Below are positions 9,001 to 15,000 of a stretch of 41,592 nucleotides of DNA, in pieces. Source of the DNA: a virus (taxonomy: Duplodnaviria; Heunggongvirae; Uroviricota; Caudoviricetes); the IMG/VR virus record IMGVR_UViG_2874968258_000006; one strand, written 5' to 3'. Each line of letters begins with the position of its first letter. Position 1 is the first letter of the stretch. The position numbers were made by a program.

Positions 9001-12000
9001 CCTCTTACATGCCGAAAGGCAAGGAGAAGCAGGCTATGAAGCAGCAAAAGGCGATGTTAATCGCCCTGATCGTCATCTGTTTAACCGTCATAGTGACGGC
9101 ACTGGTAACGAGGAAAGACCTCTGTGAGGTACGAATCCGAACCGGCCAGACGGAGGTCGCTGTCTTCGTAGACTACGAATCCAGGAAGTAAGAGTGACCG
9201 GGCGGGGAGCTGATCCCATCCCCGCCCACCTCTGATGTGTCAGGCATCCTCAACGCACCCGCACTTAACCCGCCCATCGCTGTGATCTCTCAGCGTTTCG
9301 GCGGGTTTTTTGTTGTTTATTTCCGGTGAATTTGATTCGCGCACCTTCGCAGATAGAATCGACTCACTTAAGTAGCGCGCAGGGAGAAGAGGGATGGACC
9401 CCGAACAGGGGAGAGCTATTTATCTGGAAGGATTCTGAAGATGAAAATCGAAGAATTGCGTGAAATTTTTAGTGAAAATGGCCTCTATGCTGTGCGCGTT
9501 GAGAATGGAGCGATTGTCAGCCATTGCCGCATTAGATGTTTGCAATCTCAACAAAGGAAGAGCGGTGCTGTGTTATTTTATTTTTGTAATGGACTTCTGA
9601 CGGACGGTTTTATTTTGCGTGAGGACGAATTTGTCACATCATTACGGGTTTTGAAAGAGATTGGTTTTAAGGCTGGTTTTCTGCTTTTGCTGAAGAATAA
9701 ACTCATCTACAATCTTGAGCAGGATTGAACTCCTGCTGTGTAACACCGTGCCACCGGAGAAAGCCGATGGCACATATACAACTGGTCAAACAAACCTCTT
9801 CCGGATTACTTCTCCCGGCGACGCCGGAGAGTTGCGATTTTCTGCATCAAATCAAAATAGGTGAGTGGATACACGCAGACTTTAAGCGTGTGTGTAACTA
9901 CGCATTCCACAAGCGTTTTTTCAAACTCCTGCAACTGGGTTTCGATTACTGGACTCCGGTCGGTGGGGCGATCACGCCTCGCGAACGAAAACTGGTGTCC
10001 GGTTTCGTTGATTACCTGTGTGAATCAGTAGGCCGGGAACATACGCCAGCTCTGAGCGAAGCCGCAGAGCAATATCTGAATACAGTTGCGACACGCAGAA
10101 CCAGTGATACGGCATTGCTAAAGTCGTTTGAGGCTTTCCGCGAGTGGGTAGCCATTCAGGCCGGATTTTACACCGAGCATTTTTATCCGGACGGTAGCCG
10201 TGGGTGTCGGGCGAAATCTATCGCGTTTGCGAATATGGACGAAACCGAGTTTCAGCAGGTTTATAAATCTGTTCTGAATGTGCTGTGGAACTGGATTCTG
10301 TTCCGTAAATTTTCCTCTCCGGAACAAGTCGAAAATGTGGCCGCGCAGCTGCTGGAGTTTGCGTAATGGTGGATTTACGTAAAGCGGCGCGGGGGCAGAT
10401 GTGCACCGTCAGAATTCCTGGCTACTGCAATCACGATCCGGAAACGTCTGTGCTGGCGCATTACCGACTGGCGGGAACGTGCGGAACAGCGATAAAGCCA
10501 CACGATATGCAGGCAGCGATTGCCTGTAGCTCGTGCCACGATTTAATCGACGGGCGGGTAAAAACCAGCGATTACACCAAAGAAGAATTACGCCTGATGC
10601 ATGCAGAAGGTGTTTTTCGCACACAAGAAATCTGGAGAAAGGAGGGATATTTATGATTTACCCAACGAATACAGGAAAAAGCGGAGAACACCTTCGTCTC
10701 ACCACGCTGGAAAGTGTCTGGATTCAGGGAAAACTACGTATGTGGGGGCGCTGGTCGTATATTGGTGGCGGTAAGACGGGGAATATGTTTAACCTGATGT
10801 TGACCTCTAAAAAGCTGACAAAAACGGCAATTAACGAGGCGCTCCGGAGGATGAAAAAAGCAGGTCTGAACAAGTCTGAACTTGAGGCTTTTTTGCGGGA
10901 TATGATTAACGGTAAGCAAAAGAGCTGGCTGGCGCATTGTACTGATGCAGAGGCGTTATGTATTGATCGGGTCATAAGTGAGGTGCTGGCAGAGCATCCA
11001 GGATTGATTAGCGTCCTTCGGCAACGGTATGAGGGGCGGGGGATGACCAAACGCAAAATGGCTGAACTGCTGAATGATGCACACCCGAAATGGAGTTTAA
11101 GAACCTGTGAAAGACGCATTGAGCATTGGCTAAAGGTGGCAGAATTTATTTTGTACAAACCAATGGTTATGGCTTTTGGTATAGAGAAAAAAGTTATTGC
11201 TTTTTGACGTAAAAACTGCTTCAATTCTTGTACGCTTCGCAAAGCTGTACCGCGAGGCGAATAGCAGACATGGACATTTGAAAGAGCCCGCTTTATGCGG
11301 GTTTTTTTATACCTGAAAAACGGCACAGGACGTTAAACGTGCTGGTGGTCAGATGAGTTTGCAGATGTGATGACATATGGTTATTATTCTGCCTCCGGCC
11401 CTTTAGCTCAGTTGGTCAGAGCGAGCGACTCATAATCGCCAGGTCGCTGGTTCAAGTCCAGCAAGGGTGAAGTAGTCAACAAAAACTGGCCACCGAGTTA
11501 GAGTTTTTCCAGTATCGATTTTCCGATTCGTTTGGGGGTAACCCACCGTTATATTCGTGCGGTCTTAGTGCGCTGTAATATCCAACGATATAGTCCGTTA
11601 TGGCGTGAGCTGCCTCGCTGAAGCTTACGTAACCCACCACCGGCATCCATTCGTTCTTCAGACTCCTGAAGAAGCGTTCCATTGGGCTGTTATCCCAGCA
11701 GTTTCCGCGCCGGCTCATACTCTGTCTGATCTGGTATCGCCACAATAACTGCCGGAACTGCCTGCTCGTATAATGACTGCCCTGATCGCTGTGGAACATC
11801 ACCCCGCCGGGCTTACCACGGGTTTCCCATGCCATTTCCAGCGCTTTCATGGTGAGCCTGCTGTCCGGCGAGAACGACATGGCCCAGCCCACTGGTTTTC
11901 TTGCGAACAGGTCGAGAACAACGGCGAGGTACGCCCAGCGCTTACCCGTCCAGATATAGGTCACATCACCGCACCACACCTGATTTGGCTCGGTCACGGC

Positions 12001-15000
12001 GAACTGCCTTTCAAGGTAGTTAGGGATAGCAACATGTTCATGACCACCACGTTTATACCGGTGAGTCGGCTGCTGACAGCTGACCAGCCCCAGCTCTTTC
12101 ATGAGCCTGCCAGCAAGCCAGCGTCCCATCTGGTAGCCTCTCCGGGTTGCCATTGTGGCGATGCTTCTTGCTCCGGCCGAACCGTGGCTGATGCCATGTA
12201 GCTCAAGTACCTGACTGCGTAATACAGCCCGTCTGCCGTCTGGTTTTTCAGGACGGTTTTTCCAGTATCTGTAGCTGCTGCGATGAACCCCGAACACATG
12301 GCAGAGTGTGACCACAGGATAATGCGCTCTGAGTTTCCCGATTATCGAGAACTGTTCAGGGAGTCTGACATCAAGAGCGCGGTAGCCTTTTTTAATATTT
12401 CATTCTCCATTTCAATGCGTTGTAGCTTTTTCCTCAGCTTACGTATTTCGATTTGTTCTGGTGTTATCGGAGAGGCTTTTGGTGTTTTGCCCTGACGCTC
12501 ATCACGCAGTTGTTTGACCCATCTTGTCATTGTGGAAAGGCCAACATCCATAGCTTTGGCGGCATCTGCCACCGTGTATTTCTGGTCAACAACCAGTTGA
12601 GCGGATTCGCGTTTAAACTCTGCGCTAAAATTTCTTTTTTTCATTGGAGCACCTGTGTTGTTCTGAGGTGAGCATATCACCTCTGTTCAGGTGGCCAAAT
12701 TCAGTGTGCCACTTCATTGTCGGTCAGGTTACGTAGTGAACCTCTGGCAGGGGACTGATAATGCATCATTCTGGTGTTGTAAATATCTCTTCGGACAACT
12801 TACAAAATATTCTAAGCAAACCCCGGGAACACACTCTTAACTGCCTTGGCTGGCGGTTTTTTGTACAGTGCTCGGTATGTGTGAGCTGGAAATCAGATTT
12901 TGCATGGACTGGAATCATGCTGTTATTTAGGGAAGAAGAACTGGCTTTTTCTTCCGCCTTCTCACCAGTAACGATTAGAAAAATAATGAAATGCCCCCCT
13001 CCGGGGAGGAGGACCGTAGAAAAAAGGACCCGCCAGCAAAAACATTGGGGATGAACAGCTTTCGCTACTCAGATTGCTGGCGGGTAAAGTTCCTCATGAA
13101 TTAAGAATGCTACGCGATCTTTTTTAATGGAAATGAAAATTATTGTCAATTAGTCGTGCGTGTTTTTTCATACAATATTGGTAAAGGTGATTCAGGCCAT
13201 CAGAGTTTTGCTGATGGCCTTTTTTCTTTCCGATAGCACAGGTCTGTCGGGGGGGGGGCGGGATATGTATCAGATGGAAAAAATATCAACAGGCATTGCC
13301 TACGGCACCTCCGCCGGCAGTGCCGGCTACTGGTTTTTGCAGTGGTTGGATCAGGTCAGTCCATCACAGTGGGCTGCGATTGGTGTGCTGGGAAGTCTGC
13401 TTCTGGGGCTTCTGACTTATCTGACGAATCTGTATTTCAAAATAAGAGAAGATAAGCGTAAGTGGATTTGCCCCTATATTTCCAGACATCTGTTATCACT
13501 TAACCCATTACAAGCCCGCTGCCGCAGATATTCCCGTGGCGAGCGATAACCCAGCGCACTATGCGGATGCCATTCGTTATAATGCTCGAACGCCTCTGCA
13601 AGGTTCTTTGCTGCCGTTAACCCGTCTGGTTTGGGCATGATACTGATGTAGTCACGCTTTATCGTTTTCACGAAGCTCTCTGCTATTCCGTTACTCTCCG
13701 GACTCCGCACCGCCGTGTTCTTCGGTTCAAGTCCCAACATCCGGGCGAACTGGCGTGTTTCATTAGCCCGGTAGCATGAACCATTATCCGTCAGCCACTC
13801 CACTGGAGACGACGGAAGATCGTTGCCGAAGCGGCGTTCCACCGCTCCCAGCATGACGTCCTGTACTGTTTCACTGTTGAAGCCGCCGGTAGTCACCGCC
13901 CAGTGCAGTGCCTCACGGTCACAGCAGTCCAGCGCGAACGTGACTCGCAGTTTTTCTCCGTTATCACAGCGGAACTCGAACCCGTCAGAGCACCATCGCT
14001 GATTACTTTCTTTCACAGCCACTCTGCCTGTATGTGCCCGTTTCGATGGCGGTACAGCAGGTTTTCGCTCAAGCAACAGCGCATTCTGGCGCATGATCCG
14101 GTAAACACGTTTGGCATTGATCGCAGGCATACCATCAAGTTCTGCCTGTCTGCGAAGCAGCGCCCATACCCGACGATAACCATACGTGGGCAGCTCTCCG
14201 ATAACATGGTGTATACGGAGAAGCACATCCGTATCATCAGTGTGACGACTGCGGCGGCCATCCATCCAGTCATCGGTTCGTCTGAGAATGACGTGCAACT
14301 GCGCACGCGACACCCGGAGACAACGGCTGACTAAGCTTACTCCCCATCCCCGGGCAATAAGGGCGCGTGCGCTATCCACTTTTTTGCCCGTCCATATTCA
14401 ACGGCTTCTTTGAGGAGTTCATTTTCCATCGTTTTCTTGCCGAGCAGGCGCTGGAGTTCTTTAATCTGCTTCATGGCGGCAGCAAGTTCAGAGGCAGGAA
14501 CAACCTGTTCTCCGGCGGCGACAGCAGTAAGACTTCCTTCCTGGTATTGCTTACGCCAGAGAAATAACTGGCTGGCTGCTACACCATGTTGCCGGGCAAC
14601 GAGGGAGACCGTCATCCCCGGTTCAAAGCTCTGCTGAACAATTGCGATCTTTTCCTGTGTGGTACGCCGTCTGCGTTTCTCCGGCCCTAAGACATCAATC
14701 ATCTGTACTCCAATGACTAGTCTAAAAACTAGTATTAAGACTATCACTTATTTAAGTGATACTGGTTGTCTGGAGATTCAGGGGGCCAGTCTAGTAAGGC
14801 TGCGAGAGGTGAATAATGTCGCCATCATTACGCAAGGCTGTTGCAGTTGCTATTGGTGGCGGGGCTGTTGCTATAGCATCTGTGTTAATCACTGGCCCAG
14901 GTGGTAACGATGGTCTGGAAGGTGTCAGCTACATACTATACAAAGATATCATTGGTGTATGGACTGTATGTCACGGACACACCGGAAAAGACATCATGCC

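Follow-up and report, generated by a model that had tools for sequence, protein, structure and literature searches.

In the window analysed here (the 41,592 nucleotides of IMG/VR record IMGVR_UViG_2874968258_000006, Caudoviricetes), a 547-bp spacer (12718-13264) lies between a copy of the insertion sequence (IS) IS911 and the holin gene, in the part of a defective lambdoid prophage that controls its late genes. We found with very high confidence that this spacer is a conserved non-coding module. Furthermore, judged from its elements, it is probably a lysis-cassette leader that would combine a small RNA (sRNA) gene on the minus strand with a Q-dependent gate on the plus strand. A preliminary description of this DNA had seen an orphan 548-bp stretch from 12717 onwards, with no credible open reading frame (ORF), a strong plus-strand terminator at 13195-13226 before the holin, and a long inverted repeat at 13029-13084 followed by a T-run on the minus strand. 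The stretch is real, but it starts at 12718 and measures 547 bp; the three features returned in our analysis, the terminator at 13194-13226.

The minus-strand unit starts with a sigma-70-like promoter (13121..13149, minus strand), in which the −35 hexamer TTGACA (13149 to 13144) is followed by a 17-nt spacer and the −10 hexamer TAAAAA (13126 to 13121). About 35 nt downstream of this promoter on the same strand is the inverted repeat (13029-13084, 56 nt; 13028-13085 with an A-U closing pair), which folds into a hairpin with outer and inner stems of 12 bp and 6-8 bp and a GAAA loop. The fold has −31.6 kcal/mol (z = −4.4), and none of 200 shuffles was as good. After the inverted repeat the minus strand reads CCTTTTTTC, with a U-run from 13025 to 13020, and a T-run beside the repeat is found on the minus strand only. 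The hairpin (13085 to 13028) together with CCUUUUUU has the make-up of a predicted intrinsic (Rho-independent) terminator. With a start 6-8 nt after the −10 hexamer, the 5′ end being placed from the promoter, the predicted sRNA would be ~95 nt long (13020..13114, minus strand) and would consist of an AU-rich 5′ body (13114 to 13086) and the terminator hairpin. In addition, a covariance model built on the predicted sRNA (R1) gave the window 131 bits, with 115-133 bits across all alleles. Of the elements looked for in an Hfq-dependent trans-acting sRNA, promoter-like and terminator elements are present and selectively conserved, with an imperfect −10 hexamer; on balance we favour the minus-strand unit as a putative expressed sRNA.

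Alleles of this unit were obtained by scanning IMG/VR with a degenerate promoter pattern and from the other fetched loci, and they represent about five lineages. All alleles share the same arrangement on the minus strand: TTGACA, a 17-nt spacer, TAAAAA (TAAAAG in sequence type 131, ST131), ~35 variable nt, the hairpin and a U-run. Variable sites were compared in six aligned alleles (one-sided Fisher test), with a wider check on nine alleles. The hexamers, stems and U-run together were strongly depleted of variable sites (4/58, against 99/279 in the background; p = 2.7e-6). The depletion was also seen for the stems alone (4/40 against 99/297; p = 0.001) and for the promoter hexamers alone (0/12 against 103/325; p = 0.011). 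The 5′ body of the predicted RNA was not depleted (10/29 against 93/308; p = 0.76), and in both this body and the hairpin's unpaired parts variation is at the background rate. The hexamers were unchanged in the six alleles, and the nine alleles add a single change, the TAAAAG of the ST131 copy. The stems differed only by an A.C mismatch in a plasmid allele, a G.U wobble and two substitutions at the inner stem's base.

The genomic contexts of the spacer were surveyed with a megablast search against 5426 complete Escherichia coli genomes. All 547 bp were found at ~99% identity in 9 genomes, between a tRNA cluster and the holin, uninterrupted in IS-free relatives. In these IS-free prophages the spacer module lies directly before an intact holin-lysozyme-Rz cassette. 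Meanwhile, a holin-proximal core of 385 bp (12880-13264) was present at 85-90% identity in 1428 of the 5426 genomes (~26%). Its 1546 placements were divided into 907 on chromosomes and 639 on plasmids, and 558 plasmids of PLSDB, mostly conjugative, carried it. For instance, the core is directly before the holin in the prophages of IHE3034 and AR_0086, which are extraintestinal pathogenic E. coli (ExPEC). On the ColV-type plasmid pECOS88 (locus L149, 4001-4344) it lies between iroB and iss, ~500 bp from iss and on the same strand; there the holin is replaced by an IS200-type sequence, and an IS200-type STnc490 RNA directly follows. In CFT073 (L200, 4001-4215) and the ST131 strain 18044 (L201), the core is in the pap pathogenicity island, between IS fragments and ~2.1 kb from papI. 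The element itself maps to about 3440922-3441025 in CFT073 (NC_004431.1, plus strand), 574902-575005 in IHE3034 (NC_017628.1, minus strand) and 111888-111991 in pECOS88 of strain S88 (NC_011747.1, minus strand), and it is also carried by the enteroinvasive strain CFSAN029787 (NZ_CP011416.1, around 18148-18368).

The copies without a holin are informative about the two parts of the module. In pECOS88, CFT073 and ST131 the plus-strand terminator has 2-3 stem changes and a broken T-run, but the minus-strand promoter and hairpin are intact. The plus-strand terminator is unchanged in all holin-linked alleles. Such differential decay is expected if the minus-strand unit is useful alone and the plus-strand terminator is useful only before a holin.

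Some other arrangements were also met in the search. In one IMG/VR contig two copies of the element flank the holin (L008, 2756-2859 and 4036-4139), and in another (L009, 1303-1406) ~1.6 kb is inserted between the element and the holin. A dispersed repeat or miniature inverted-repeat transposable element was considered and rejected, since the window has a single copy and the median per genome is 1. The spacer between nmpC and essD in the DLP12 prophage of K-12, where we first thought of IpeX, is not homologous.

The second part of the module is the pre-holin intrinsic terminator on the plus strand (13194..13230). Its 10-bp GC-rich stem (13194-13220) is formed by AGGCCATCAG and CTGATGGCCT and is followed by TTTTTTCTTTC; the fold has −26.3 kcal/mol (z = −3.8). 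The terminator is 38-44 nt upstream of the holin ATG, with the stem end at 44 nt, and the stem with TTTTTT has the features of a predicted intrinsic terminator. In the late control of lambdoid phages, intrinsic terminators before the lysis genes should be passed only by Q-modified polymerase. The window prophage has a Q-family gene upstream (10653-11204; DUF1133, E = 2e-107; Phage_antitermQ, E = 8e-7), which is a Q21-type (DUF1133) antiterminator.

To place this terminator in a wider context, we drew on IMG/VR and the species representatives of GTDB, which yielded 148 class II holin loci; the 450 bp upstream of each holin were clustered into 44 groups. A terminator-like plus-strand hairpin 20-135 nt before the ATG was found in 22 of the 44 cluster representatives, against 0.47 in dinucleotide shuffles, and a minus-strand terminator in the same interval was found in 0 of the 44 clusters. 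These late operons thus recurrently place a terminator right in front of the holin, irrespective of the sequence farther upstream. In the window a Q-family gene precedes such a terminator, and a gate that opens only with Q would be the natural reading; we consider it likely that the pre-holin terminator is functional in its context.

No protein explains the conservation of the spacer. The longest ORF has 97 aa without any Pfam match, and no ORF common to all alleles was found. An ORF of 37 aa (12991-13104) runs through the inverted repeat; in relatives its start is lost, or it is frameshifted or stopped, and its codon changes were 0-2 synonymous against 9-15 nonsynonymous. The Prokaryotic Genome Annotation Pipeline (PGAP) places a 63-aa hypothetical protein over part of the spacer in some genomes, and this ORF is not conserved either. 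A small protein in the spacer was rejected on the comparison of ORFs over alleles, on Pfam and on the codon changes.

Several observations weigh against an expressed sRNA. The −10 hexamer TAAAAA is without the usual final T, and for this reason the promoter scan did not call the site. In addition, the stem and the U-run are parted by two non-U bases in the window allele. The overall identity of the transcribed region is 88%, no higher than that of the flanks, and the alleles, from ~5 lineages, are few and related. No compensatory base changes in the stems were found across the recovered alleles; covariation is uninformative here because the stems are nearly invariant and the lineages so few, and the predicted structure appears to be supported by selective conservation, not by covariation. 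Furthermore, no isolated phage of INPHARED matched the element by megablast, and blastn returned only a 47-nt piece. Under the genome matches to the spacer there was no annotated feature except a non-conserved 'hypothetical protein', and sequence strings of the predicted sRNA occurred in no searchable paper. Finally, simple duplex searches of the predicted sRNA against papI, iss and the holin start were no better than shuffles.

A rival reading is a purely cis-acting insulator, in which terminators facing both ways would block convergent transcription (late or tRNA transcripts on the plus strand, stray antisense transcripts coming from the lysis and bor/iss side on the minus strand), no stable RNA would be made and the TTGACA would be incidental. 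Both strands have more terminator-like sites than chance would give (7 in 800 bp, ~eight-fold the 0.9 ± 1.2 of shuffles). Minus-strand genes (iss, a hypothetical ORF) lie downstream of the lysis cassette in relatives, and on ColV plasmids iss is upstream of the unit on its strand, at the distance given above. The imperfect −10 hexamer would suit an insulator as well, as would the fact that expression of the unit is a prediction. However, an incidental TTGACA does not agree with hexamers that stayed invariant in six alleles while the spacer and flanks varied, with only TAAAAG added by nine alleles, nor with their right distance (~35 nt) from the hairpin. In the CFT073/ST131 island the unit is intact where nothing is left to insulate. 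Moreover, minus-strand terminators within 135 nt of the ATG are absent from all other holin clusters, so such an element is not a general need of the operon. We regard the insulator as unlikely.

The spacer could also be decaying junk, the remnant of deleted cargo or of a dead gene, with copies that are alike only through recent divergence. The window prophage is heavily degraded (IS911, an IS in the holin, many other IS copies), the PGAP protein covers a part in some genomes, and the transcribed part and the flanks show equal identity. Against this, the same module stands before an intact lysis cassette in IS-free prophages, no ORF survives across alleles and the codon changes are almost all nonsynonymous, the substitutions are non-random with respect to the predicted elements (p = 2.7e-6), and in holin-less copies the plus-strand terminator decays but the minus-strand unit stays. 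We consider junk very improbable. The preliminary description had offered a remnant of deleted cargo, a small RNA or a regulatory sequence for late transcription; 'remnant' and 'orphan' are not supported for the stretch itself, in view of the uninterrupted 547 bp between tRNA cluster and holin in IS-free relatives. The small RNA gains comparative support from the conserved promoter, stems and U-run, and late regulation gains from the pre-holin terminators of the class II holin clusters. What the description would have held against its own view was a lack of transcript together with clear homology to a conserved non-coding spacer; the second half, the homology, was found.

It is just as improbable that the long hairpin acts on the plus strand in the late mRNA leader, as an RNase III site or stability element with an incidental minus-strand T-run: the hairpin also forms in the plus-strand RNA (~14.7 bits by model R1) and sits in the late transcript leader, 180 nt before the holin, but it is the minus strand that has the conserved U-run and promoter, the hairpin persists in copies left without a holin or late operon, and the G.U and A.C changes do not tell the strands apart.

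Thus, an sRNA gene facing a Q-dependent gate is the reading that we prefer. In the mechanism that we infer, RNA production, the RNA 5′ end, Hfq dependence, the targets and Q-dependent read-through are all predictions. The predicted sRNA would be made in the lysogen, independent of phage late transcription. By analogy with the prophage RNAs PasA/PasC, PapR and AsxR/AgvB, its predicted action is in trans, probably with Hfq, on mRNAs of the host or island. Because the unit is antisense to the late transcript, Q-modified read-through would overrun the sRNA promoter and titrate the sRNA. Meanwhile, the plus-strand terminator would stop polymerase not modified by Q, and read-through from tRNA genes or cargo could not reach the holin. 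That this sRNA has a regulatory role in trans, and has kept it on ExPEC plasmids and islands, is a possibility that we put forward tentatively. Equally tentative is a wider proposal: the element may represent an undescribed Hfq-type RNA family, analogous to PasA/PasC yet unrelated to them, which would have moved from prophages to ColV plasmids (next to iss) and to the pap island of CFT073 and ST131, and which would be kept for tuning host or virulence genes in extraintestinal E. coli and in Shigella or enteroinvasive E. coli (EIEC). The window prophage itself is dead, and since the module is stranded between IS911 and a disrupted holin, the sRNA unit is the one part that could still have a role for the cell.

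Two further hairpins were found in the spacer. The distal spacer (12718..12879, plus strand) is collinear with the region downstream of tRNA-Gly in the IS-free relative RMDEC465 (L001, 6001-6160) and reads as the tail of the tRNA-cluster unit. It is restricted to the EIEC/Shigella-type allele (9/5426 genomes), with no variation by which constraint could be judged. It contains a terminator-like hairpin on the plus strand (12839-12858, followed by TTTTTG; the whole site, 12839-12866, reads AACTGCCTTGGCTGGCGGTT TTTTG), which converges on the minus-strand unit and occurs only in the nine-genome allele. This hairpin may end the tRNA-cluster transcript or a short plus-strand RNA; in the mechanism above, it would end the tRNA-cluster unit. 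The other hairpin is on the minus strand (12993..13014), has a U-rich tail, 9 pairs and a G/C tract of variable length, and looks terminator-like. As a conserved back-up terminator it is not supported, and its function is doubtful: its sequence and pairing potential are poorly kept in other alleles.

The left border of the spacer is formed by IS911 (11468-12717, minus strand), which is full length (1250 bp, both ends included) and, over 1249 nt, shares 99.8% identity with features carrying the annotation 'IS3-like element IS911 family transposase'. No 3-bp direct repeat surrounds it, with GGG on one side and TTG on the other. Just before it is a tRNA with anticodon CAT (11397..11470, plus strand), called by ARAGORN, with 59 bits for the Rfam tRNA family and named tRNA-Ile in the annotation of the relative. 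The IS911 end has taken the place of its CCA and of the last bases of its acceptor stem: the 3′ junction reads AAGGGCCACCA in RMDEC465 (L001, 5553-5629) against AAGGG and then TGAAGT in the window. Although ARAGORN still calls it, the remaining tRNA is probably dead because the last acceptor pairs and the CCA are gone.

The comparison with RMDEC465 also shows what was lost. In this IS-free relative the order is DUF1367, DUF1364, DUF1133, tRNA-Ile, tRNA-Arg, tRNA-Thr, tRNA-Gly, ~680 unannotated bp, holin, lysozyme and lysis protein, and the IS911 end is the exact point from which the homology to the window starts. Missing from the window are 377 bp (L001, 5624-6000), which include the 3′ end of tRNA(CAT), tRNA-Arg, tRNA-Thr, tRNA-Gly and 137 bp of spacer. 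The absence of a direct repeat around IS911 fits an IS-mediated deletion and suggests that it was an adjacent deletion or that two IS911 copies recombined. Read in this way, cargo was deleted to the left of the spacer, and the spacer itself is the normal one for this phage type.

The genes around the spacer are those of a lambdoid late region. On its 5′ side the order is DUF1367, YbcO, DUF1133 (the Q-family gene), a terminated short leader and tRNA(CAT). A hairpin with a T-run (11277-11308; GAGCCCGCTTTGTGCGG TTTTTTT) is located ~80 nt 3′ of the DUF1133 gene, weakly resembles the Rfam families IsrK and trp leader (E = 0.2-0.4), and is probably the tR′ terminator of a short pR′ transcript. On the 3′ side is the P21-type class II holin S (13265..13463, plus strand; Phage_holin_2_1 of Pfam, E = 5e-35; ATG at 13265), which is cut off after codon 66 by an IS2-like element beginning at ~13464 and reading TGGATTTGCCCC from 13464. 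This element (13464-14800) has a 301-aa transposase ORF on the minus strand (13474-14379); its terminal sequence suggests IS2 as a candidate label. Beyond it are lysozyme (14816-15310) and Rz (15298-15777). In the holin leader, a poly-G tract of 10 G (13249-13258, plus strand) directly precedes CGGGAT-ATG, in the Shine-Dalgarno region; relatives have 4, 5, 6 or 7 G. Such a slippage-prone tract could alter holin translation, and a homopolymer sequencing error is an alternative for its length.

Some features farther away should also be recorded. The window is crowded with IS copies, and transposase ORFs of 272 aa, 279 aa and 167 aa recur. This IS richness and the set of genomes with the 99% allele fit a Shigella or EIEC origin. 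A homologue of QueH (epoxyqueuosine reductase, E = 2e-65) adjoins a hok/sok locus (sok, 117 bits; window positions 8122-8805 and 8866-9041); it is a tRNA-modification gene in a phage that once also had a four-tRNA cluster. Elsewhere in the window, Rfam matches at gathering level were found for naRNA4 (28938-29008, 63 bits, plus strand) and sRNA-Xcc1 (33761-33849, 68 bits, minus strand), both unrelated to the spacer.

Prophage sRNAs from the moron slot, such as AsxR/AgvB, PasA-D, PapR, Esr41 and StxS, rewire host regulation and virulence, and their catalogue comes from a few strains of enterohaemorrhagic (EHEC), enteropathogenic (EPEC) and uropathogenic E. coli (UPEC). If expressed, the unit would add a family that is absent from Rfam and from annotation and that is present in ~26% of complete E. 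coli genomes. This family would travel with virulence loci of ExPEC and avian pathogenic E. coli (APEC), namely iss on ColV plasmids and pap islands. Furthermore, the boundary between cargo and holin would have recruited an antisense sRNA independently at least twice. The pre-holin terminator, as a widespread design, helps to separate silent from leaky lysis cassettes in prophage annotation. For the window itself the biology is modest: the prophage is dead (IS911, IS2), and the stretch is ordinary for its phage type.

The putative plus-strand gate is comparable to the Q antitermination system of lambda (tR′/6S RNA). Both have a Q-family gene, a terminated short leader and further terminators before the lysis genes. 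However, the gate in the window is 2 kb (originally ~1.3 kb) from Q and directly before the holin, and tRNA genes and the antisense unit lie between the gate and pR′.

For the sRNA unit, the window was compared with Rfam using cmscan, for 10500-14500 at E ≤ 1 and for the whole window at the gathering threshold. The first search returned only the tRNA and weak matches outside the spacer, and the second none of the families in question; AgvB (RF02702), AsxR (RF02703), Esr41 (RF02676), STnc100 (RF02076) and IsrK (RF01394) were all missing from the spacer.

The papI neighbourhood in CFT073 led us to consider PapR, the UPEC sRNA of UTI89 that represses papI (Khandige et al. 2015, PMC4546395). Identity with PapR was rejected because its primer and probe sequences are absent from the window; a literature search for an sRNA near papI in CFT073 returned nothing. 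The two are alike in that both are associated with ExPEC and Shigella and absent from K-12, and a PapR-like 3′ end occurs in the same intergenic region and strand, ~230 nt beyond the element, only in the IHE3034-type (ExPEC) allele. They differ in sequence, and the window element is without significant complementarity to papI. In IHE3034 itself (NC_017628.1; L002, 4698-4907), an STnc100 copy on the plus strand (Rfam, 114 bits) and the PapR-like terminator on the minus strand meet almost end to end. This terminator has 20/22 matches to the PapR cloning primer and is ~230 nt upstream of the element. Counting the element itself, this allele has a stack of three sRNA-like units in front of a single holin.

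AsxR and AgvB are another useful comparison. In EHEC prophages, Tree et al. (2014) described sRNA pairs that converge at the moron site, with anti-sRNAs that have conserved 3′ and variable 5′ ends (PMC4104026). The window unit likewise lies 3′ of pR′, is antisense to the late or toxin transcript, converges on a plus-strand unit and has a conserved 3′ and a variable 5′ end. AsxR and AgvB differ in being 51-60 nt long and in lying upstream of the esterase ORF rather than beside the holin.

The closest parallel is provided by PasA and PasC, pathogenicity-associated sRNAs of the EPEC strain E2348/69. They are antisense RNAs between the sialate esterase and the holin in a '> < >' arrangement (Pearl Mizrahi et al. 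2021, PMC8550237, table S6), and their Hfq dependence was validated by Northern blot (PMC8550237). Zhu, Shabalina & Storz (2026) reported that PasA/PasC directly adjoin the holin/lysozyme operon, that PasA and PasA-2 have a constant 3′ and a variable 5′ end, with family membership assigned by blastn, and that the Pas genes are nearly all chromosomal (12 of 4600 matches on plasmids) and enriched in EPEC and EHEC (bioRxiv 10.64898/2026.05.13.724894). The window unit occupies the identical slot in the identical orientation: it is flanked by the cargo site and a class II holin-lysozyme operon and runs antisense to the late genes. In addition, the aligned loci share the order of holin, plus-strand terminator, TTGACAA, body and hairpin, with a TTGACA −35 hexamer and a Rho-independent terminator whose 5′ arm starts with GCCAGC. 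The sizes are also similar (79-85 nt against ~95 nt predicted).

Membership of the window element in the PasA/PasC family was tried by three ways and rejected. A blastn-short search of PasA and PasC against the window gave no match at the element, and Smith-Waterman local alignments remained within the range of dinucleotide shuffles (z −0.2 to 1.0; 1.0 for PasA and −0.2 for PasC). Model R1, used as the query in a one-way comparison, had no match at E ≤ 10 in the PasA locus (L005), the PasC locus (L006) or L111. The hairpin in the window is longer (58 nt against ~33 nt), 639 of 1546 placements of the window element are on plasmids, and the element is common in ExPEC and APEC. Moreover, PasA/PasC are experimentally Hfq-dependent, whereas Hfq dependence of the window element is a prediction. 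Thus, while placed in no described RNA family, the locus is predicted to work like a PasA/PasC-type locus to which a pre-holin gate has been joined.

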